A model generated the notes under the pieces. That model saw nothing but the letters and a program-made list of their open reading frames with translations. It was not told the origin of the DNA and ran no database searches. Shown piece after piece: positions 25,292 through 44,174 of a stretch of 64,000 bases of DNA. The position numbers and the translations under genes are program-made. This stretch comes from an uncultured bacterium. GTDB taxonomy: Bacteria > Margulisbacteria > WOR-1 > CAVSGV01. The stretch covers positions 276,253 to 340,252 of the forward strand of contig CAVYHE010000003.1 of the NCBI GenBank assembly GCA_963768305.1, given 5' to 3'. The stretch's first letter is position 1; the number at the start of each line of letters is the position of its first letter.

Positions 25292-26764
25292 ATGGCTGAA
25301 GAGCTGGAATACTTAACTCTTAATGAGATAAAAGCTTTTCTTAACTCCATCGACGATATCCGCGACCGGGCGCTGATAACCCTATTTCTTAACACCGGCC
25401 TATTCCTGAACGAAATAACCTCGCTGAAAATTGATTCCGTCGACTGGAAGAATAAAATTCTGAATGTCCCCGGAAACCGTAAAAGGGCCATTCCTCTCAA
25501 CGACCAGGTTTTTGATGCGCTTGCCAAATGGTCGAAGGAGCGTCCCTCGGGCAATATCTCCGAGCTTTTTGTCACAACAAAAGGCGCGCTGAAAGATCTG
25601 ACCAGCCGCGGCGTAGATTATCTGATTAGAAAATACGCCGATCAAGCAGGCATCAAAAAAACGGGTCAATCCGCAGATACTTCGCAATACATTCGCAGTC
25701 CGGCTTTTCTCCGAAGAACCCTCCGTGGAAAAAGCTTCCGCCATTTTGGGCATATCCGATCTGGAATCGGTAAATCGCTATATAAGGGCCTCTAAATTGC
25801 CGCCGGCCAGGGTAGAGATAACTGAAAATCTTGAGCATATCGATACTCGCCATCCCCTTGTCAAAGCCGTTTCCAAAATGTTCCCGACAAAACCCAAAGC
25901 CGTTAAGCCGACGACCGAAATAAAAGGCCCAATAACTCCCAGCCCCGAAGAAGTGATCTTCGGAAGGGATAACATAATCGCCGACATAAAAGCCGATATC
26001 GCCAAAGGCCAGTCTGTTTTATTGACGGGTCCTCTGGGAATAGGCAAAACGCATTTATTGAAGCACATGTTAAAAGTGCTTGGTCCTAATACAATATATA
26101 TATCATCCCCAACCCCGCTTAAAACCGCCCTGATGCAAATACTCGTAAAACTTGATCCTGAATGGAATAAGACGCTGAATACAAGAGCTTCAACGAAAGA
26201 TATAACCGACTATATTGTGAAAGATAAAAGGGGAAAAGCCTCCCGTCCTGCTTATCGACAATTTAAATAATATCAAGATTTCTGATATTGATCCTGTTTT
26301 AAGCTTTTTGAATAACTTCCCCGTACTTGCCGCGGCTGATGAAACAAAGCCCAAGCTGAAGCAGATATGGTGGCAGCTCAAACAGGTCGCGCTTCCGCCG
26401 TTAAATGAAGATGCCTCAAAGGAACTTATCAAATATCTTACGCAGAACCTTACTATCAGCGATTATGAAATGCTTGAAACAAGGATATCTGACCCTTTCA
26501 AGCGGCCTTCCCATCGCGATCGTAGATATGGTCCGTCAAATAAGTCATATCCGGAAGATTTCAGTTGATGTTATTCGTGATGTTTATCACGAAGCCGGGA
26601 TTCAATATCGCGACTGGACGATGGTAATAATCTTCATTTACTGGATAGCCGTCATTTTCAGGTTCCTTGCGCTCGGCACGAAAAGCTATGAGGCGTATTT
26701 CCTTGCAGGTTTCGGCGTAACTTTATTGATGATATTAAAAAATGTTATGTCAATGTTGAGGTAA
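25292..26764 (+). CDS. Degenerate tyrosine-recombinase catalytic domain + P-loop ATPase + C-terminal TM fusion (~490 aa, 3 frameshifts)
   Basis: RDRALITLFLNTGLFLNEI, NPQILRNTFA, LGISDLESVNRY; Walker A GPLGIGKT; Walker B-like VLLIDN; two TM at the end; frames join at ~25655, ~26230, ~26487. Confidence 0.72.
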
Positions 26765-26815
26765 AGGAGGGAGTTAAAAGAATTTAAGGGCTCAAATAAT
26801 AAGAGGTGATAATAA

Positions 26816-27271
26816 ATGACAAGAAGAGAATTTATTGAAAAATGTTTTGGCAACAAACTTCAGGCAATCCCTTACAGTGAAGGCGACCATTTTAATGCTT
26901 TAGAGGAGGTCGAATCGCTACTTACTAAGCAAGGGCTTATTAATTTAGATGAGAATGATATTGAGCAAATAACCAGTACAAGCGACAAGTTAGTGGCGAT
27001 TTCTGCTGAGGCCCACGGAAAACATCGGTCGCACAGACTTGGTCACAAAATCCTTTCAAACATACCTGATTTCTTTTGGGATAAGAAACCCACAAATGCA
27101 TTATTTAATATCACGGGAAGTCCCGATATAACACTAAATGAGGTTAATGATGTTGCTGAACACATTTACGATTCAGTGAATCCCCACGCGAATATCATTT
27201 TTGGCGCGATTATCGATGAAAATAAAACCGATTACTTAAAAGCCACCGTGATATTCGGCGGCAAAAAATAG
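26816..27271 (+). CDS. Stand-alone FtsZ C-terminal domain protein
   Basis: GLINLDEND (T7-loop-like), LFNITGSPDITLNEV, ANIIFGAIIDE, ATVIFGG; no GGGTG GTPase motif. Confidence 0.8.
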   Translation: MTRREFIEKCFGNKLQAIPYSEGDHFNALEEVESLLTKQGLINLDENDIEQITSTSDKLVAISAEAHGKHRSHRLGHKILSNIPDFFWDKKPTNALFNITGSPDITLNEVNDVAEHIYDSVNPHANIIFGAIIDENKTDYLKATVIFGGKK

Positions 27272-27288
27272 AAATGTGAGGTTAAAAT

Positions 27289-27855
27289 ATGGAACCAATT
27301 TTTACTTTATCCTTTCCGGAATATAAGGTTGTTCTGAAGTTATTGGGGCTCTATAAGCCAAAATATGGCTATTCAATATTATTGCCGTTGAGCAGGCAGC
27401 AAAAAGGCTTCGATCTGCTAATTTACAATTTAAATAAACATAGATCTGCTTCAATCCAGGTAAAAGGCTCTCGCTCATATGACGGACATAAAAACGATCC
27501 GCATGATTATAATCTTTGGTTTAAGAGGTTTAAATATAAAGAGGGTATGGCCGATTTTTATATTCTGTTTAGTGTATATCCCCAATTGGCTTCTAATATA
27601 AAGCGTCTCGATCATTCAAGAAATACATCGCGTTACAGCTATTTATTCATGCTATTAAAAGATGTTGAGATGGAGAAGCTCTTGGTTAACCTTAAAACTA
27701 AAAAAGGGAAAAGGGATAACTCTTTTCAGTTCGGTTTTGACTCTTCTGGCAGAAATATATTTCTGACCAGAGGTATTGGTAGGCAGAAAGAGAAGCCCTA
27801 TAATAAATATCTGCTGGAGAACAGGGTCGATTTGATAAAGAAATTTCTGAAATAG
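27289..27855 (+). CDS. PD-(D/E)xK nuclease-fold protein
   Basis: QKGFDLL..SIQVKGSR. Confidence 0.65.
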   Translation: MEPIFTLSFPEYKVVLKLLGLYKPKYGYSILLPLSRQQKGFDLLIYNLNKHRSASIQVKGSRSYDGHKNDPHDYNLWFKRFKYKEGMADFYILFSVYPQLASNIKRLDHSRNTSRYSYLFMLLKDVEMEKLLVNLKTKKGKRDNSFQFGFDSSGRNIFLTRGIGRQKEKPYNKYLLENRVDLIKKFLK

Positions 27856-27862
27856 GTAAATT

Positions 27863-29199
27863 ATGCTCGCACCCACCCATAGCGTATTCGGCATCTTTTT
27901 AACGCTGATATTCCTGGCGGTGTTCGGGATTCAGTGGAGCCTGCATTGGACGATAATTCTTGTTGCCATTTTTGGCTCGATCGTTCCCGACATTGACCAT
28001 CCCCGTTCCGTCATAGGCAAGCTCTTCCCCTATATCTCCATCCCCTTAGAGCGCAGATACGGCCATAGAACGATAACCCATTCCTTCATCGGCTGGATAA
28101 TTTCAACTGTCATTTTTGCTTTTCTTGTCTTGCTTGTAGTTTTGATATTTAAATTTGTTTCGATTCTCGGACTTCCGTTTCGGGTTTTATCTTGGGCGGA
28201 GTCGAGGGCTTGGCTCCCCGCTGGATAGCCGCATTTTCAATATCTTATTTTTCCCACCTGCTTTTGGACATGTTCAACAAGCGCGGCAGCCAGATGTTCT
28301 GGCCTAACCTCAGTCGTGATGTTATCCCGAAAAATCCAAAATACCGCCCTGAATCGGGCTCAAGCGTTGAGCCTTTTATCTTCATTATTCTTTTCATATT
28401 GATGCTTTTTGCTTTCCCGATCTCCAAATACGGGATAGCAAGTTCGCTTCGCTGGCTTATGGCTACTCCCGGCTCCGCCATGCAAGAATTCCAGTCCCTC
28501 AAGACCCATTCCTATGTTGATTTCAACGGCTATTACACGGAAACAAAAGAGCCGCTTGAAGGGACCGCAGAAATACTTGATGTAGACAAAGGACGGCTGG
28601 TAGTACTTTATAAGACCAAGATTTACACGTTAAGTGACGCTCTAGCCGCCGATATAACCGCCTCCCATGTCCGGCTGAAAAGGACGGATATTCCAATTAA
28701 TATCACGCAGAAGATATTTAAGGATGAAAACCGCGATGAGTTGCTTGCTCAAATTCCTGCAGGCGCGCTTGTTTCGGGAACAGTTAAGCTCCCGGAAGGA
28801 ATGGAGCTTCAATTCCCCGCCTTCCCCGGCTCTTATAAGCCAATGGATCAGAAAAGCGGGAACCTGATCCTTTTATTCGCCTCAAAAGACCAAATTGAGA
28901 AGCTTGCCCTCACGGAAACCTTCGATCTGCTAAAAAGAAAGGACCAGGCCGACCTCGCCCAGCTGTACGCGCAGGCGGATAAGCTCAAAAGCCAGATATC
29001 GGAAGCGGAAACTGGCGGCGGACTAACTCCTTTGGGCCAGGAGCTTATGATGAACAAGGATGACATCCAAAAGCAAAAAGCCCAGCTTGCCGATTTGAAA
29101 GGCCAGCTTGATGAAATAAATGTTAAAATTGAAGAGCTTCAATTGAAGATAAAGGCCAGAAAGTTCGTTTTTTCAGGAGAGGTTTATTTAAGGCAATAA
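27863..29199 (+). CDS. YdjM-like metal-dependent membrane hydrolase with soluble coiled-coil extension (frameshift ~28190)
   Basis: THS, PDIDH, GHRTITHS, SHLLLD motifs. Confidence 0.75.
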
Positions 29200-29210
29200 G
29201 GAGGCCTGAT

Positions 29211-29742
29211 ATGAGAAAATTAGTCGTTTATCTTGTAATAATGAGTTTATTGTCCCCGCTTATCGGCTCTATTGCTTATGCTTTTGAGTATACCCTCGCC
29301 CCAAATGATACTCTTGAAGATCAAATTAATGCCAAAAGGACATGGATACAAAGCAAACTATCGCTCCGGATGGCACAATTTCGCTTCCCTTCCTCGGAAG
29401 GGTCCAGCCTCAGGGCAAAACGCTCAGTGAATTTCAAACCTATTTAACAACCGAACTTGCCAAATATGTGAACAAGCCTCAGCTTGTCGTTTATCTTAAC
29501 GCCAAGATCGATATATGTCGTTCAGCATAATCTCAAGACGAATCTTTCAGAGGTAAGGAAGCTAAATCCATTGACAGAAGCTAAAGCATTATGCTGGCGA
29601 GGATTACACAAAAGAGATCAAATATGGCGATGTTATAACCGTCGATGTCGGCATTCAGCCTGATTGGTGGGAAACTAACTGGTACAAGGTCATATCCGCA
29701 ACGGCTGTGCTCGTAGGAATAGATGCGGCATTAAAGAAATAG
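29211..29742 (+). CDS. Polysaccharide-export (Wza-like Poly_export) domain protein (frameshifted)
   Basis: Signal peptide, YTLAPNDTL, IAPDGTISLPFLGRV, KYVNKPQLVV, C-terminal amphipathic helix. Confidence 0.7.
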
Positions 29743-31214: not shown

Positions 31215-34200
31215 ATGAGTAAACACGGGCAAAACAATCAAAAAGGAGTATTCGCCCAAAATTGGGCTGCTCTGTCATTGTTTCTCCAATTCTATAAAGA
31301 TCCGAAGTTTTCGTACATTCAACTTGAACCAAACACTTCGGAAGATTTTGATCTCGTCTTTAATGATGGGAAAAAGATTGTTTGCGAAACAAAATACAGG
31401 ATAAAGAAGTTCAATTATGCAGATTTAAAGCTTTTACTTTCAAAGATATTGGACCGGAAATCGATATCAGAGCAGGATGAAATATTAATAGTTTGTCGAT
31501 CTGTTAATGAAACCTTAGCTTCGGATGTCAAAAATATCAGATTCTTTAATCGTTTAGAAGAGAAATTCCTAGAGAAGAATTTTAATAAGCAAATGATAGG
31601 ATTGATTCCAAGGGTTAGTTTTTGGGTTATTAATAAATCGTTACATAAGGACATTAATTTACCATTAATATCACAAGCAATAAATCTATGGCTTCCCCAA
31701 CAAGACCTGAAGAAATTTACCGACCATATTATGCAAGATAAAATAATGCGATTGTCGACGCAAGGAAGAGCGTATAGCCGAAATGATTTTAATAATGAAA
31801 TCAACAATCTAAATGCATATGTCTTGCAAAGCAGCGATAAGTTCAATAAAAGGTTAACACGAAAAGAGAAACAATTCAAAATGTTGGAAGACGATGTAAA
31901 CAGGAACAAAGGGATTAAGTGGGGAACGGCCTCATCATCCGCCATTTCTGCTCAATGGGATTTAATGTCTTTTGTTTTAACAAAATTAAGGAAGAGAAAC
32001 GATCTTGATCTCAAGAAATGGGATGATTTGTGGCAACTCAAAAGTGCTTTTCAGTTTATTTATACCGTTTTCGATATCTTTAAAAATAATATGGGGACTG
32101 AACAAAATATGACATATATCCTTGGATATATTCAAAGAGATATCAAGGGAATACGTGGTTTCTATGGCCATTCGGACTTCTTTAATCATGGAGTTGTTGA
32201 GCTTGTGACAAAGATAATTGATGCCCCAAGCGGGCATAAATATCTGAAAGAAGCATTTGCCATTGTTAAATATCTTATTAATTTCAATAAAGATGAATAT
32301 TTCTATCTTAAAGATCGCGACCAGGATCGGGGCCAGTGGGAAAAGGAAGAAATATGTAAGTTAATAACGAAGATATATAAAATTGCCCCCCCTGAGATTA
32401 AGGAATCTGTTTTCCAGCTAATTACATCGGGATTTAACCTCACGGAAGACGAAGGTGAATTTAGCCATTATGCGCCAAGAGAAGCTTTCGAAATTATCAG
32501 GGAGTGGTTAAATGAAGATTTTGTTAATAGAATCACTCCGCTAGTAAATATAATTGTAGATCAATATAAAAGGTTTTATAAGAAGTTTGGGAAAAATATT
32601 GAATTTAAAGGCTGGGAGCTTATGGGCGGTGGAGTCGGAATCTGGGAGGGGAATTATCGTGTTTCAGATCGTCATTTTATTGAATATATCTTGTCACCAG
32701 CTATCAGAAAATATTATGAATCAAATAAAGCTGCCGGTTGGCAATTAATACTAGATAAGTTTATTAGTAAGACAGCACAAGTTAGTTCTCACCAACCTGA
32801 TTTCTTAAATAGAGCCGTTTTCGATATTGTATGCGAAAGATATGCAGAAGGAGATGAAAATTCTAATCGCCAAGCTTTCAAGATTCTTAAAGAGTTCATT
32901 CTTTCCCCCAAAGGGATTCCACATAAATCCGAACTAATCTATCAGAACATAGATCGCCCAACAATGTCTGACGAAAAGAAATGGAAGCTGGTTAAGATTA
33001 TGACCGATAAATATGACATTCCTGCCAATCCTTTTATTGAGCCAATAGTTGCTGGACTAGTAAAGAAAGGGCATCCCAAAGCCAAACAGTTATTAATAGG
33101 GTGGTTTATGAACCCGAAATTCTATCCTCGATTCCCTTTTGATGGCAGATATATCTCTACAATTAAGGGATTAATTGAAACAAACTTAGATTTATCAATT
33201 GATTTATTTAAAATCATAATGCGGAGTGAATATATTAAAACGGCAAAATCAGAGCATTATGATGTTTATGATGTTGCAAACATATTATTTGAGATATTGA
33301 AAAGAGATTATGTGCAAGGTTTATCCATTATTCGAATGTTGGAATCCGAGAAGGCATTGAGCATCGATCAACAGATTATCTACACTTATAGCTTATGCAA
33401 TTATCGTGGGAATGAAGACTCAGATGATTTAAATCTACTTATTAAAGTGTATGCCGATATTGTTGATCCATTTCTGACAAGGATGCATGATGATATTAAT
33501 TCTATTAACCATGTATTGACTTTTGATAATAGCAGAGAAGCATTAATACAGTTTGCCTCAAGGTTGGCTGCTAAGGGCAAAATCCATGAGGCATTAAGAA
33601 TAGTTAAAGTCTTTTTAGATGATACCGATCCATATCTACCTTCTAACGCCCCAGTGGGTTATAAAATTGAATATAATGAACACCAAAGAATCGAAAGAGG
33701 AGAAGCGCCACTCACAATTACATCTGTGAGAGGATGGTGTGCGTGGACTTTGATGAGATGTTCGGTTTTGTCTGGAAGAGAATACATCCCAATGGTAATT
33801 GAATTTACAAAGAAGTTGATTGAAGACAATAACTATTATGTTGTTCATTTGGCATGTAATGCATTGGCTCACCTAGCTAGAAACCGTCTGACAGTATTGC
33901 CAAAGAATAGTGATATTATGTTCTTTAACGATGATAAGCGAAAAGCTCTGGAAATGGCAAAAGATGTCGAAAAAATTGCTTTTTCACTCCTAGATAGGTT
34001 TGTTGGCTGGCCAACTCCAGTTCAAAAGGCACTTATTAAAGATGTAATATATGTATTTGATAACATTACTCAGCTGAACGAATCAGATGCTACAAAATTA
34101 GTTACCAAATTAATAGGCTTGCCGAAGGAGGCCGTTGCAGAATCTGCCCCATTATTAATATTCTTTGCTGAAACGAGAAGAGATTGTTATGCAAAATGGA

Positions 34201-34844
34201 ACACATATTATCCAGGATTATATGATGATCTTGGACCTGATAAATATAACTCAGACATTTTCAAGAAGATTCTTACTGACACGATTAAATCCTTGATGAA
34301 GGATAATCCCAAAAATTGCTTTCGATTTGCCTCCACTTTTGAACACATGTTGCGTCATGATGTCGAAAGAAAAGCCGACGCCGAGCAATCTACAAAACTG
34401 GGACTGAAATATTTTAGACTTTTGATGGAGCCTTACTCTCATTCAATTTATAACATTATCTTTCAGGTTATTCAAGATAGGATGAAAAATCCGGATAAAT
34501 ATTTAGATGAATGGTTTTTATTGTTCATAGAATGCTTAAATCTCGAAAACAGATACTATGATAATGCGGTTAAAATGGGGAATCTTGAAAAGGTATTTTG
34601 GTTTCCTTCTTTCTATCATTCAGATATATTAGAATTAATCTATAAAGGAATGGGCCAAGATAAATTTATGAGGGCTGCAAAGATATTCTTTAATTTTCCA
34701 AAAGGAATGCAACTAGAAGAATCTTCAAAACTTGTTAATATAATTAAAGAATTATCAAAATCAGATAAAGAAGCGCAAAGGATCATTAAAACTCTAATCA
34801 AAAACAATCCTGGTAAATATTGGGATTTAAAAGAGAAGAAGTAA
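31215..34844 (+). CDS. 1209-aa protein: N-terminal PD-(D/E)xK (Cap4-like) nuclease + long helical region
   Basis: KGVFAQ..EPNTSEDFDL..VCETKY; low GC; no Walker A seen. Confidence 0.65.
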   Translation: MSKHGQNNQKGVFAQNWAALSLFLQFYKDPKFSYIQLEPNTSEDFDLVFNDGKKIVCETKYRIKKFNYADLKLLLSKILDRKSISEQDEILIVCRSVNETLASDVKNIRFFNRLEEKFLEKNFNKQMIGLIPRVSFWVINKSLHKDINLPLISQAINLWLPQQDLKKFTDHIMQDKIMRLSTQGRAYSRNDFNNEINNLNAYVLQSSDKFNKRLTRKEKQFKMLEDDVNRNKGIKWGTASSSAISAQWDLMSFVLTKLRKRNDLDLKKWDDLWQLKSAFQFIYTVFDIFKNNMGTEQNMTYILGYIQRDIKGIRGFYGHSDFFNHGVVELVTKIIDAPSGHKYLKEAFAIVKYLINFNKDEYFYLKDRDQDRGQWEKEEICKLITKIYKIAPPEIKESVFQLITSGFNLTEDEGEFSHYAPREAFEIIREWLNEDFVNRITPLVNIIVDQYKRFYKKFGKNIEFKGWELMGGGVGIWEGNYRVSDRHFIEYILSPAIRKYYESNKAAGWQLILDKFISKTAQVSSHQPDFLNRAVFDIVCERYAEGDENSNRQAFKILKEFILSPKGIPHKSELIYQNIDRPTMSDEKKWKLVKIMTDKYDIPANPFIEPIVAGLVKKGHPKAKQLLIGWFMNPKFYPRFPFDGRYISTIKGLIETNLDLSIDLFKIIMRSEYIKTAKSEHYDVYDVANILFEILKRDYVQGLSIIRMLESEKALSIDQQIIYTYSLCNYRGNEDSDDLNLLIKVYADIVDPFLTRMHDDINSINHVLTFDNSREALIQFASRLAAKGKIHEALRIVKVFLDDTDPYLPSNAPVGYKIEYNEHQRIERGEAPLTITSVRGWCAWTLMRCSVLSGREYIPMVIEFTKKLIEDNNYYVVHLACNALAHLARNRLTVLPKNSDIMFFNDDKRKALEMAKDVEKIAFSLLDRFVGWPTPVQKALIKDVIYVFDNITQLNESDATKLVTKLIGLPKEAVAESAPLLIFFAETRRDCYAKWNTYYPGLYDDLGPDKYNSDIFKKILTDTIKSLMKDNPKNCFRFASTFEHMLRHDVERKADAEQSTKLGLKYFRLLMEPYSHSIYNIIFQVIQDRMKNPDKYLDEWFLLFIECLNLENRYYDNAVKMGNLEKVFWFPSFYHSDILELIYKGMGQDKFMRAAKIFFNFPKGMQLEESSKLVNIIKELSKSDKEAQRIIKTLIKNNPGKYWDLKEKK

Positions 34845-34886: not shown

Positions 34887-37800
34887 TTATTTCCTAAGAA
34901 AATCAATCTCATCGATCTCTTTCATGATTCTGTATGTTTCTGTCAGGGCAACAATCATTTTCTGATAATGTTCAATATCTTCATTTGATAGTTCCCGGCC
35001 TTTACGGTCCTTAAGCCATTTTTGTGCGGGCTGATAACCGCCGATGTAAAAGTTCCACGCAATTTCCGGCACTTTTCCAAAATATTGCTCTGCATTAATG
35101 TATATCTTGCCATCTTTATAGGTTACCTTTTCAACAGTATCTGAGCCGGAAGCGGGATATGTAGTAATATATTTATCCACTTTAGGAGATTCAAGCAGAT
35201 GTAGTTCCCGCAACTCTGTCCCAAGTTTTACTAACTTTTTGAATGTTTTTGTGTCTTTCGGATATGGCACACGAGGAAAATCTATTTTCAAGAATTCTTT
35301 ATACTTATTACGGTATCTAGGCGAATACAGAACAGCATAAATATAATCATAAATATCTTCCGGATTTGTTTGGCCGATTATACTTTCTATTTTAATGGTA
35401 ATTTCTTTGTTAAGGTTTGATACTCTTTCATCCCCTACAGGGTAAAGATAAAGTGGAAAAACATATGTTTGATCACTAGCAGCATGAATATCGGCAATAG
35501 ATTTAGAAACATATGCCCTATCAAAAGGTTGATTGGCCGGCATTGAACGCGAAGAGAGTAAGGTGATATTATCTCTGCCAACAACATTCACATTTGTTTT
35601 TTCTCTTGGATATGCAATAAAGCCTTTTGAATTTCCACTATATGCTGTGTACCGCACATCAAAAGGACGATAAAGTATTTGTTCAATACTATACTTCTTG
35701 CTCAAATCCTCTTTTGCCCATTCGACTTTCCAATCTCGCCCATCTTCTGGCAATTGGTATTTACTTCTTATTTCTAAATCAGACAATGTTTGGAAATCAT
35801 CAATTACTTTTTTAATGTCCTTTTTTGAAAATTGCACAGTAGTATCATCGCGTTTCGTTTGAATGCCAGAATTGTATTCGTGAAATATTTCAGTTAAAGA
35901 AACCCCGTTTTTATATTGCTCTTCTAGCCCAAAATCCTTAGGAACAAAGAAATAATAAGGATCGTTATATTCAATGTTTTTCCATTTCACCTTTTCTATT
36001 TCGGTTTCACTGAGTATTTCATATTTCGCTTCCCGGCTGCCATATAACTCTGAATGATAAACGACTCCTAGTCCCGTTTTATTTTCGCTTTTGCGGACAA
36101 ATATCGAAATAGCCACTCCTTGTTGTATATCAAATACATTTTTATCTTCTTTATTCAGCTCTTTCTTTCTTGAACTCCCATGAAGATCAAGCACATATAT
36201 CTTTTCAAAGGTTTCAAGCAAATGCTTCCTCATTTGGCGATGTGTAATACCATCCAAGAAAGAGTTATTAGTAATCATTGCAACAATGCCAGTTTTGTTT
36301 TTTTCAATAAAATGCTCTGCAAGTCGAATAAATTTAATATAATCATCATCCAAGTTTATCTTTTTTTCGCCAAGACCTTTTTTGTAATCATCTAGTTTAG
36401 ATAATATCCATGCCCCTTTATTCTTTGATTTTACATTGTAAGGTGGATTACCCATGACCACCATAATCGGAGTTTCATTTTTAATCATATTCTGCCTGCT
36501 TTGGCCTCTTCTGCAATGCTTTCTGCCAAACCAAAAGCAAATCATAGCTTGTTGGTTTGCGCCTTCCTCAAGTGAATTAGTTAAATAAATTCCAAGACGA
36601 TTATTAAACATTCTAAAATCCGATAATTTAAGTGCAATACTTAATTTAAGATGAGCGATAGTATATGGAGTCATCATTAATTCAAAGCCATGTAGACGCG
36701 GCAAAAGGTCATTATGTACATATGCTGGCCAGCTGCCCATCTTGGCCCTGTTCATTTGAGATATTCATATATGTTCCTGAATAGTTTCACTAATAAATGT
36801 CCCTGTGCCGACTGCCGGATCAAGAATTTGCACACGATGTTTCCCATTCGGTAGTTTTGATGCATCAGCAAGCCCATCTCGAAGCTGAAATCTTTTGCAA
36901 AATATGATCAACAGCATCGAACAATAAAATCGAACAACCGGCAATGGTGTATAAAACGCCCCCATTTTCTTATCGAAGTTCAGGATCATATTCTTTTAAA
37001 AAGTCCTCGTAAAAATGAATCACAGGATCTGGTGCATTCTTGTTTACCCACATAATCATCCCTATAAGTACTTCTATTAGTTATTTGAGTTTGCATGATG
37101 AAACAGATATCACAATTCATCAACGATAAACTTAAGCGCTTATCAAAATCGGCCCCGGCGATATGATCAAAAAAATGTCTTAAAAATGGGTTAGATGCGG
37201 GAATTAAATCTCTTGCGCTTCTGACGTGAAAAAGTATCAGGGGTTTCATCGTAATATCTTGCAACAAATAAGCCATAGACTAGAGTTTGGGCATACATAT
37301 CGGCAAAAGCATTCCTGAGTCAGTCGTGAACAAGAGCTTTTTTATCGTTTCATATACACGCAATATCTCTGTATTTTTTTTGAATCTAAATCTGAAGAAA
37401 GATAATGCCTAATATTGTCCCTTATTCTTTGAGCCTTACCTCCCATGATCTTTGCAAGGTGCTCACCTGACTTGATTGGCTCTTTTTGTGATTGTGTAAA
37501 GTCGATAAGGGTTTTCGCGACATGTTCATAATTTTCCGGTAAAGGTGCAATTGAACGTGTCTTAAGGTCATATTCTGCTATTTTTATTGGTTCTTCATAA
37601 CGTTCTCCATTCCTATAAAACCTGAAATTCAAGATAATCCGTAAGAACTAAATTCGTATAGCCATAATATCTTGCCATTTGCTCAGATTTTTCAACTTTA
37701 TCTAATGGAACACCAATATCTTTTGCTTCAATATAGAGAATAGGGACACTATTGTTGATTACGACAAAATCCGGTTTATTCCCTTCTGCTGCTCTTTCAT

Positions 37801-42667: not shown

Positions 42668-44128
42668 ATGAATAAAATGAAAATTGGCATCTATACCCGC
42701 GTTTCCACCGATGGACAGGCCGAAGTGGAGTTCAACTCCTGCGAGGCTCAGGAAGCCAAGATAAAAGCCTTTATCTCCAGCCAGGACAATATGGAGATAT
42801 ATAAAACATATTCTGACCAGGGTTACAGCGGAGCCGACACTAATCGCCCCGCCCTTATGGATTTGCTAACGGATATTCGGCAAGGCAGCATAAACTCTGT
42901 TATTGCTTATAAGATCGACCGGCTTACAAGGTCGCCGAAGGATTTCTATCAGCTTATCGAAGTATTCGAACAGCATGATGTCAGCTTCATATCGGTAACT
43001 GAGAGGTTCGATACCTCTACGCCGTCAGGTCGTCTCCTCAGAAATATAATGCTTACTTTCGCGCAGTTCGAGCGCGAGCTTATAAGCGAAAGGATAAGGG
43101 ATAAAATGCTCGAACGCGCGAAAAAAGGGCTCTGGAATTCTGGTATTACCCCGCTCGGCTATGGCAGAGAAAATAAGAAACTGATCATCAACGCCAATGA
43201 AACTAAGATAGTAAAAACCATCTATGATACCTATTCTAAAACCGGATCGATGGCTGCTGTATACCATAAGCTAAAAGACCAGGGAATTAGGGGAAGGAAC
43301 GGCAAGATTTTTCCAAATGTAACATTATCCACAATTTTGAGAAATAGGCTTTATACCGGCAAGATAACTCATCGCGGCCAAACATATCAGGGCATCCATG
43401 AACCGATCATTTCAGAAGAGCTTTTCAGCAAAGTTCAATTGCTTCACAAGGAAAAGGTTAAAAAGGCGAAGGTTTACAACTATTCCCTTTTCACCGGGCT
43501 TGTGAACTGTAAAGAATGCGGTTCAAAAATGACTTTTGTTTTCACTAACAAAAGCAGGAAGCAGCCCGGTCCCAAACTGAGGTATTATTATTATCGCTGT
43601 ACCAGCATTTCAAAAAGGGATTTTTCTGTTTGTTCCACCAGACAGGTGAGCATGGATCGGCTTGACGATTTTGTCATAGAAAATCTCTCAAGGATCGCCG
43701 CCGATCCTAATTATGTCGACAGTTTGATTTTCAGGAACAACCACCCGGTTAATGGTCCCCGGAGCGGGATCGAAATGAAGGGGTCAACATCTCCGATGTC
43801 GCCGGAAATAGTCAAAGAAACTCTCAATAAGGTGATCGAAGCCGCTAAAATAAAAGACCTTTCGGAGAGAAAAAATATCATCAGGAAATATGTTAACGGC
43901 ATAAATTATTCAAAAGAAAATATTGAAGTAGTAATGAATTATTATGATAAGGACAGCGAAAATATGGAGGTTGTGTCCCGACGCGGCGAACATTCGGCGG
44001 GCGGCGTTTGGGTAGCGGCAAACGCCGCCCGCCGCGCTATTTCCCGCAAAGAAAAAACCGCCGGTTTAGAAAACACAGCGGTTCGCAGCTATAAATTATG
44101 TGGAGCCGGAGCGGGATCGAACCGCTGA
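42668..44128 (+). CDS. Large serine recombinase (integrase)
   Basis: IYTRVST catalytic Ser, DRLTRS, FAQFERELISER, recombinase domain, zinc ribbon CKECG..YYRC; reads through attR. Confidence 0.95.
   Translation: MNKMKIGIYTRVSTDGQAEVEFNSCEAQEAKIKAFISSQDNMEIYKTYSDQGYSGADTNRPALMDLLTDIRQGSINSVIAYKIDRLTRSPKDFYQLIEVFEQHDVSFISVTERFDTSTPSGRLLRNIMLTFAQFERELISERIRDKMLERAKKGLWNSGITPLGYGRENKKLIINANETKIVKTIYDTYSKTGSMAAVYHKLKDQGIRGRNGKIFPNVTLSTILRNRLYTGKITHRGQTYQGIHEPIISEELFSKVQLLHKEKVKKAKVYNYSLFTGLVNCKECGSKMTFVFTNKSRKQPGPKLRYYYYRCTSISKRDFSVCSTRQVSMDRLDDFVIENLSRIAADPNYVDSLIFRNNHPVNGPRSGIEMKGSTSPMSPEIVKETLNKVIEAAKIKDLSERKNIIRKYVNGINYSKENIEVVMNYYDKDSENMEVVSRRGEHSAGGVWVAANAARRAISRKEKTAGLENTAVRSYKLCGAGAGSNR
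43972..44103 (+). repeat. P arm + attR core (inverted copy at 41713-41843)
   Basis: 129 vs 128 bp, identical except one indel; contains a 16-bp perfect GC hairpin at 43995-44034. Confidence 0.93.
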
Positions 44129-44174
44129 CCTCCTCTTGCGAAGCGAGGCGTTCTCCCAGCTGAACTACGGCCCC
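44101..44174 (-). tRNA. tRNA-Ala(CGC), apparent small indels in anticodon arm and near 3' end
   Basis: GGGGCCG/CGGCTCC acceptor stem with G3:U70, D-arm GTTCAGCTGGGAGAAC, T-loop GGTTCGA; anticodon read from the duplicate 5' half. Confidence 0.88.

Follow-up and report, generated by a model that had tools for sequence, protein, structure and literature searches.

A separately encoded FtsZ C-terminal domain in a genomic island of Saganbacteria/WOR-1 as a candidate modulator of host FtsZ

Canonical FtsZ carries a GTPase domain, a C-terminal (GTPase-activating) domain and a C-terminal tail within one polypeptide. The locus described here raises the question of what a gene that encodes the C-terminal domain by itself might do in a bacterium that also has a complete ftsZ. 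This gene lies in a stretch of 64,000 nucleotides (hereafter the window) from an uncultured bacterium of the WOR-1 lineage, and its product is designated P0001. A preliminary description made from the sequence had presented the gene as a mobile-element-encoded FtsZ C-terminal domain and had proposed that the protein caps host FtsZ filaments or activates their GTPase, and in this way blocks host division during transfer or abortive infection. To evaluate these proposals, we examined the protein, its relatives and their genomic surroundings, and weighed several explanations of the gene against one another.

The open reading frame is intact and is preceded by its own ribosome-binding site (Table 1). 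P0001 is not the tail of the preceding open reading frame, despite the reading frame common to both, because three in-frame stops (TGA TAA TAA) stand directly upstream of its ATG. In a Pfam scan with E values up to 1, FtsZ_C (PF12327) alone matched P0001, at E 5.4e-15 and 55.9 bits over residues 93-149 (the gathering cut-off is 27 bits); the same scan found no Tubulin/FtsZ GTPase domain (PF00091, with the glycine-rich nucleotide loop) and no SulA or other described inhibitor family. Profile-profile comparison (hhalign) of the P0001 family with 16 FtsZ orthologues gave a probability of 99.8 and an E value of 3.9e-30, and paired residues 29-148 with residues 192-312 of host FtsZ, a part that runs from the C-terminal half of helix H7 through the T7 loop and on from H8 to S10. 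In P0001 the T7 motif is QGLINLDEND, in host FtsZ it is PGLINLDFAD, and the T7 synergy loop N-x-D-x-x-D is present as N43-L-D45-E-N-D48, these three residues aligning with N206, D208 and D211 of host FtsZ. At its C-terminus (...VIFGGKK) the chain stops 2-3 residues past strand S10; host FtsZ extends about 40 residues farther, to ...LPAFLKNV, and P0001 has neither the disordered linker nor the conserved C-terminal peptide for membrane tethers. Residues 1-28 contain a family motif, F-x-N-K-(L/V)-x-x-x-P, and had no significant match to FtsZ in hhalign. An equivalence of this N-terminus with FtsZ residues 150-178 (the NDKL region), suggested by MAFFT, was not upheld by hhalign. The preliminary description was accurate on all of these features, namely the intact 151-residue frame with its own ribosome-binding site, the non-FtsZ N-terminus, the T7-like loop GLINLDEND with the FtsZ_C motifs, and the absence of a GTPase domain and C-terminal tail, and P0001 is confirmed as an FtsZ C-domain that truly stands alone and has a T7 loop.

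Table 1. Positions of the FtsZ C-domain gene, its neighbours and the island border in the window
Feature	Position	Strand	Basis or remark
Stand-alone FtsZ C-terminal (GTPase-activating) domain gene, P0001, 151 aa	26816..27271	+	ORF, Pfam, AF2, Foldseek, hhalign, VIA-align
Shine-Dalgarno-like AGAGGTG, 7 nt 5' of ATG	26802..26808	+	Direct sequence reading
T7-loop codons QGLINLDEND, P0001 residues 39-48	26930..26959	+	Sequence and alignment
Integrase-like + P-loop ATPase + TM gene, left slot border	25292..26764	+	489-491 aa, intact in relatives
PD-(D/E)XK-fold protein, 188 aa, second cargo gene, 17 nt after P0001 gene	27289..27855	+	Model and conserved residues
YdjM-like membrane hydrolase + coiled coil, right slot border	27863..29199	+	437-461 aa in relatives
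Truncated Poly_export-like gene, conserved backbone	29211..29447	+	176 aa in relatives
Large serine recombinase, far end of low-GC island, abuts tRNA-Arg	42668..44128	+	
tRNA-Arg	44100-44174	-	Beside large serine recombinase

An AlphaFold2 model of P0001, built from an 18-sequence family alignment, had a mean pLDDT of 88.8 and a pTM of 0.84. The top Foldseek matches of this model were all FtsZ structures (E about 1e-11), and VIA-align placed its residues 21-150 on residues 182-313 of Spiroplasma FtsZ with Z 16.5 and an rmsd of 2.2 A over 128 residues. As modelled, P0001 is a folded C-terminal (GTPase-activating) FtsZ subdomain with a short family-specific N-terminal cap. It has the same fold as the C-subdomain of FtsZ in solved structures (Spiroplasma melliferum 8GRW, S. 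aureus 3VOA) and is homologous to it from the end of H7 through S10, including N-x-D-x-x-D. In contrast to that subdomain, P0001 is a whole protein, with a 28-residue N-terminus of its own, a diverged H8-S7-H9 region, and no GTPase domain, linker or C-terminal peptide.

A gene of this kind might be a recent truncation or an assembly artefact of host ftsZ, as the common T7 motif and 39% identity with host FtsZ over 120 residues could suggest. However, host ftsZ is intact (351 aa), adjoins ftsQ and lies on a different contig of the genome (1.53 Mb, 16 contigs, 86% complete), and FtsZ orthologues across the class are 76-92% identical among themselves as compared with the 39% of P0001. Homologues of similar length with the same non-FtsZ N-terminus are found in four other genomes, G004 (two copies, at 56% and 45% identity), G001 (42%), G007 (39%) and G054 (one more). 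P0001 aligns over its full length with four genomic homologues at 36-56% identity and with 12 database representatives. Fragments of real FtsZ have a different appearance: all eight near-length, FtsZ_C-only database matches that were examined on long contigs proved to be pieces of real FtsZ, each with an FtsZ-type H7 sequence and four also with an IPAFLRR tail. A recent truncation of host ftsZ, the origin against which the preliminary description had itself cautioned, is effectively excluded.

The family to which P0001 belongs is recognizable by a length of ~145-155 aa, the N-terminal F-x-N-K-(L/V)...P motif, the H7 end, the T7 loop and the FtsZ_C core, with the tail absent, and P0001 fits this pattern. 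Among 65 genomes of the class five carry it, and among 146 of the phylum also five. When 1.84 billion representative proteins were searched with a family profile, the matches were 12 full-length family representatives (145-155 aa), one 103-aa partial sequence and one 296-aa fusion, with thousands of ordinary FtsZ proteins ranked below them. The source names of family members are 'Candidatus Saganbacteria' and 'candidate division WOR-1', and their public record titles read 'hypothetical' or 'FtsZ C-terminal domain-containing'. Scanning 185,579 species genomes with the N-terminal motif gave 37 pattern matches, among which two were relatives, both already known and both from Saganbacteria/WOR-1, and a metagenome scan with the N-terminal alignment returned five loci, all of them full-length FtsZ genes (364-427 aa). 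In the ESM Atlas, a 142-aa 'FtsZ_C-containing' cluster (53 members, score 0.93) is among the nearest clusters that lack a GTPase domain; this is a lead only.

A dN/dS comparison among homologues had been proposed in the preliminary description, and the values obtained (Nei-Gojobori) point to purifying selection. The ratio was 0.14 at dS 1.07 for the least saturated pair, G004b and G001, and 0.15 for the P0001 gene and G004a, for which dS, at about 2, is close to saturation. Judged by these substitution patterns, the stand-alone family is under purifying selection in Saganbacteria/WOR-1. A neighbour-joining tree with 60 bootstraps set the family apart from FtsZ in 28 of 60 replicates, or 36 of 60 when the database protein P0137 was included, and does not place the origin of the family. 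P0137 (658 aa) is itself unusual, in that its C-terminal half resembles a complete FtsZ whose nucleotide loop is degenerate and whose T7 loop, PGLINLDIDD, is intact; its N-terminus gave a weak, sub-threshold match to a CAP12/Pycsar TIR-like domain (E 0.0024).

The distribution of conserved residues, examined in an alignment of 18 family members and 16 FtsZ orthologues, bears on the parts of the domain that might be in use. Columns that are both kept in the family and identical to FtsZ fall in the T7 loop (P39, G40, L41, I42, D48), at G68, in S8 (F97, V99, G101), in the S8-H10 loop (T106, L107), in H10 (V110, N111, A114, Y118) and in S9 (A125, I127, F129, G130, A131, I133, D134). The P-G-L-I of the T7 loop is kept in 14-17 of the 18 members; at the S8-H10 loop, 17 members have G101 and 16 have T106, and L107, the sole invariant column of the family, is present in all 18. 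The H8-S7-H9 third of the domain has strongly diverged from FtsZ. On this alignment, the elements of the bottom face are the best-kept parts of the family. L107 aligns with L270 of host FtsZ, which we take to be L272 in E. coli numbering. L272E is cited in an excerpt of PMC12754632 as a polymerisation-interface mutation that keeps FtsZ monomeric.

The catalytic positions of the T7 loop are less uniform. In S. aureus FtsZ, according to an excerpt of PMC8936486, the subunit interface has a K+ ion and the catalytic water, both held by N208, D210 and D213. Within the family, the Asn (N43) is kept in 10 of 18 members and the middle Asp (D45) in 7 of 18, being otherwise E, T or N, and the last Asp (D48) alone is kept family-wide (16/18). 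A conserved GTPase-activating role is doubtful because two of the three catalytic positions vary, and for the same reason docking is likelier than catalysis to be the conserved activity. The genome of the window (G000) also encodes a second FtsZ-C paralogue of 112 aa (contig 7, L028:85-423, minus strand) that has no T7 loop, and the GTPase-activating part of the preliminary proposal is further weakened by it. This paralogue directly follows an intact tyrosine integrase at the contig end, and another integrase lies 5.6 kb away.

The mechanism that we favour uses the bottom face as a docking surface. Excerpts of two studies provide its background: GTP hydrolysis needs the T7 loop of one FtsZ subunit in the nucleotide pocket of the next (PMC7010359), and filaments grow at the end on which T7 is exposed, to which monomers add via their GTP-bound top face (PMC8936486). 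P0001 would present the same 'bottom' face (T7 loop and S8-H10 loop) as a growing filament end and, because of this likeness, may dock on the GTP-bound 'top' face of host FtsZ, either in a free monomer or in the subunit that occupies the shrinking end. As it is without a top face and a tail, it could be neither extended nor anchored, so that the pool of assembly-competent FtsZ would become smaller. P0001 would compete with growing ends for GTP-FtsZ monomers or sit on the shrinking end, and Z-ring assembly would be slowed or blocked by monomer sequestration or filament capping. The window copy, in which N-x-D-x-x-D is kept, might also trigger futile GTP hydrolysis. It would be expressed with the island operon, and other members through WYL-type stress- or phage-responsive regulators; the outcome would be that division stops when phages attack, DNA is damaged or the element is active. 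WYL regulators that switch on division inhibitors are described in an excerpt of PMC13010146 (DdaA-AciT in Acinetobacter, DriD in Caulobacter).

That P0001 docks its T7 face on GTP-bound FtsZ and thereby sequesters or caps it is a tentative reading of the sequence evidence, to which we assign a probability of about 0.45. It is favoured by the fold, the homology, the conservation of the bottom face, the purifying selection, and the status of FtsZ as the sole tubulin-type GTPase: in all five carrier genomes the only PF00091 protein is canonical FtsZ, apart from two sub-threshold matches. Nor did these five genomes yield a separately encoded N-domain partner for the module. Against it stand the variable Asn and middle Asp, the paralogue without a T7 loop and the diverged H8-S7-H9 region. 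The closest experimental parallel is an engineered C-fragment of S. aureus FtsZ that keeps the central helix H7 and, in the excerpted account of PMC4496089, needs GTP to bind an N-fragment head-to-tail, as is proposed for P0001. That fragment is a laboratory construct of real FtsZ, whereas P0001 is natural, diverged and separately encoded, and its binding is a proposal. The 'capper' mutants L178E and L272E (excerpts of PMC12754632 and PMC8936486) poison assembly with one working longitudinal face, as P0001 is proposed to do. These are point mutants of full-length FtsZ; P0001, in contrast, is without the whole top half and for that reason would act on monomers or at the shrinking end. A further point against the docking reading is published reasoning that fragments with no top face would act at the less sensitive filament end, because mutants of the top interface are less toxic in the excerpted part of PMC8936486.

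The genomic setting of the window copy supports the description of the gene as mobile. The conserved backbone order, found at 25292-29700 of the window and in G001 and G004, is the integrase-ATPase gene, a variable slot, the YdjM-like gene and the Poly_export-like gene, followed in the window and G001 by a C1 peptidase gene. Slot content differs in each of the four copies, comprising an ORF of about 75 aa in G001, an ORF of about 95 aa in the first copy of G004, a 477-aa gene in its second copy, and the FtsZ-C gene with the 188-aa gene downstream in the window. The GC content of the cargo is 36-38%, compared with 44-49% in the backbone. Of 146 phylum genomes, 27 carry the integrase-ATPase gene, frequently in multiple copies and near contig ends, and the backbone module looks like a cassette-capturing or hotspot system. 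This module is located in a mostly low-GC island (~22.5 to 44.2 kb) between a phosphoglycerate mutase gene and tRNA-Arg/pgk; the island also contains a type ISP/IIG restriction-modification fragment, a DprA/SLOG-like gene, a DUF3800 gene and the large serine recombinase beside the tRNA. The label 'mobile-element-encoded' is reasonable because of this island-like stretch with a serine recombinase at a tRNA-Arg border and a variable cargo slot by an integrase-like gene. The proposed block of division during transfer fares less well, since nothing points specifically to conjugative transfer.

Two other parts of the island deserve mention. The non-coding segment 24299-24501, 5' of the integrase-like gene, has 74-78% identity in all three related modules; an Rfam search of 22-31 kb of the window, including this segment, gave no match, and matches in a promoter scan were at chance level. 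A 1209-aa ORF at 31215-34844 (plus strand), in a stretch of 33-37% GC, has no Pfam, PADLOC or PHROG match and adjoins the type ISP/IIG fragment (622 aa, 34887-36755, minus strand).

Three backbone genes around the window copy are disrupted. The integrase-ATPase gene has three 1-nt insertions (at about 25654-25662, 26223 and 26487), the YdjM-like gene is split into two ORFs (break region 28028-28200) and the Poly_export-like gene is truncated (disruption in region 29320-29590). Because these flanking genes are pseudogenes, expression of the window copy is uncertain, and P0001 might itself be a decaying, non-functional remnant in a degrading island. We consider this very unlikely. Both cargo ORFs are intact over 1.04 kb next to flanks that carry ~one indel per 400 nt, for which a rough estimate puts the chance of escape at about 0.08. 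Moreover, P0001 aligns over its full length with relatives without a frameshift, its ribosome-binding site is intact, and the family is under purifying selection.

The second cargo gene encodes a protein with 14 database relatives and conserved E11, D42 and Q57-x-K59. The closest solved fold to its model (pLDDT 84.1) is I-Ssp6803I, a homing endonuclease of the PD-(D/E)XK type (Z 10.2 with an rmsd of 3.6 A across 124 residues), followed by PrfA, Hjc resolvases and restriction enzymes at Z 5-7. Going by this model, the 188-aa protein may be an effector, or merely a selfish nuclease that moves the gene pair. One of its relatives is named from a Nanoarchaeota MAG, which points to cross-domain spread of this small gene.

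The surroundings of the family were compared at seven loci from five related genomes, which are not independent of one another. The first G004 locus (G004a) has a type IIG restriction-modification gene and a Cas4-like nuclease nearby, then a WYL-WCX regulator, FtsZ-C, ClpP and a ShosA-like SLOG gene, and farther on CapP/CapH-like genes and a serine recombinase, with canonical ftsZ about 8 kb away. The second (G004b) has type II restriction-modification, GIY-YIG and OLD/GajA-like ATPase-TOPRIM genes before FtsZ-C. In G007 the order is WYL-WCX, AbiU/AIPR, FtsZ-C and a 102-aa Cys-rich protein, and in G054 it is WYL-WCX, two small proteins (one with a D...EVK motif), FtsZ-C and a 112-aa Cys-rich homologue. 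The G001 gene follows a PDDEXK_5 protein, and upstream is a 92-aa ORF (L026:10715-10990, minus strand) that begins with a remnant of another family N-terminus, MKEKEFADQCFSNKLPG, and then diverges, which suggests recombination at the 5' ends of cassettes. WYL-WCX genes head the operon in three of the seven loci, and none lies beside the window copy. No PADLOC-DB 2.0 family matched P0001 at E up to 0.001, whereas neighbours in related loci did match. The FtsZ-C family is one that rides in variable slots of genomic and defence islands, among anti-phage genes.

These neighbours allow a different account, in which the module is an FtsZ-mimic decoy sensor that copies the FtsZ face attacked by phage division inhibitors: such an inhibitor would bind it, and a linked nuclease or other effector would be released or activated. 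Most examined loci are in defence islands (AbiU/AIPR, OLD/GajA-like ATPase-TOPRIM, type II and IIG restriction-modification), with the Cas4-like nuclease, CapP/CapH, the ShosA-like protein and WYL regulators also nearby. The 296-aa database fusion, P0135, joins an HNH endonuclease and a coiled coil to a complete FtsZ-C module that includes the family N-terminal motif, and small PD-(D/E)XK-type proteins adjoin the gene in the window and G001 (Pfam PDDEXK_5), the G054 neighbour having the motif only. A role in sensing or targeting accounts for P0135 and for the small nucleases that recur as neighbours no less well than plain inhibition does. Nevertheless, no PADLOC model matches P0001, the partners are non-homologous and vary by locus, the 188-aa neighbour is most like a homing endonuclease and perhaps a cassette vehicle and not an effector, and no phage trigger is known for this uncultivated lineage. 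We regard a decoy function as unlikely. In a more elaborate version, which seems to us distinctly unlikely, the FtsZ C-domain would have been domesticated into a portable module of immunity, with phage division inhibitors sensed by this integrated decoy and linked nucleases fired in response; the nucleases would be the HNH domain of the fusion and the PD-(D/E)XK, OLD and AbiU neighbours.

The domain might also have been re-purposed for a role unrelated to host FtsZ, as an adaptor or regulatory subunit for a nuclease, an ATPase or ClpP, or as a binder of phage tubulin. In all seven loci FtsZ-C lies downstream of a gene for a nuclease, ATPase or recombinase and reads in the same direction, and much of its surface has diverged from FtsZ. 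In G004a the ClpP-family gene that follows (L024:9491-10072, 15 nt after FtsZ-C, with the ShosA/DprA-like SLOG gene next) encodes an apparently active enzyme, as its catalytic Ser/His/Asp motifs are present by eye. FtsZ is a substrate of ClpP in other bacteria, and a targeting role beside ClpP is conceivable on that ground. In two loci the next gene encodes a conserved Cys-rich (CxH...CxxC) protein of ~100 aa (L027:5275-5583 and L034:10273-10611; 56% identity). This Cys-rich protein has weak matches to phage zinc-finger PHROGs. A low probability is likewise given to this re-purposing, since the parts of the module identical to FtsZ form the longitudinal interface, beyond the hydrophobic core alone, and no one partner gene is common to all loci. 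Nor was a family member found in the viral collections searched. No PHROGs family matched P0001, P0121 or the 112-aa paralogue, and 128 pattern matches from a scan of IMG/VR with the family alignment included no relative. The 18 phage records found by tblastn were 26-33% identical, covered residues 20/29-149 only and were FtsZ-like, one being annotated ftsZ, with the family N-terminus in none.

Sequestration or capping of FtsZ, our preferred reading, would set P0001 beside several known systems and yet apart from them. The bottom face of FtsZ is where SulA, MciZ and phage lambda Kil bind, whereas P0001 would itself copy that face. To our knowledge, the FtsZ inhibitors described so far are unrelated small proteins or peptides. 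SulA (in the excerpted part of PMC13010146), MciZ and Kil resemble P0001 as small, often stress-induced or mobile-element-encoded blockers of Z-ring assembly, but have no sequence or fold relation to it. The DdaA-AciT and DriD systems in the same excerpt are WYL-regulated division inhibitors, and in three of the seven family loci an HTH-WYL-WCX gene lies upstream of the small putative division inhibitor; AciT, however, is membrane-anchored and unrelated to FtsZ, and no WYL gene adjoins the window copy. Truncated FtsZ paralogues of Hyphomicrobiales (excerpt of bioRxiv 10.1101/2025.09.29.679267) are extra, shortened FtsZ-derived genes, one of which inhibits division when over-expressed, but they keep the GTPase domain and represent the opposite truncation to P0001. 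No description of stand-alone FtsZ-C proteins was found in the full-text literature searched. The domain as such is known; what that literature does not describe is a conserved FtsZ C-domain encoded by a gene of its own on an island.

If the proposed mechanism is true, a selected gene that is the rear half of FtsZ would represent a new means of sabotaging or controlling cell division, through a dominant-negative fragment that is built in. Its location among anti-phage genes would tie cytoskeletal mimicry to bacterial immunity and, should the decoy account prove true instead, would give bacteria a counterpart of the decoy domains in plant immune receptors. P0001 would in addition provide a ready-made natural reagent for the study of filament polarity and of the isolated GTPase-activating face of FtsZ.
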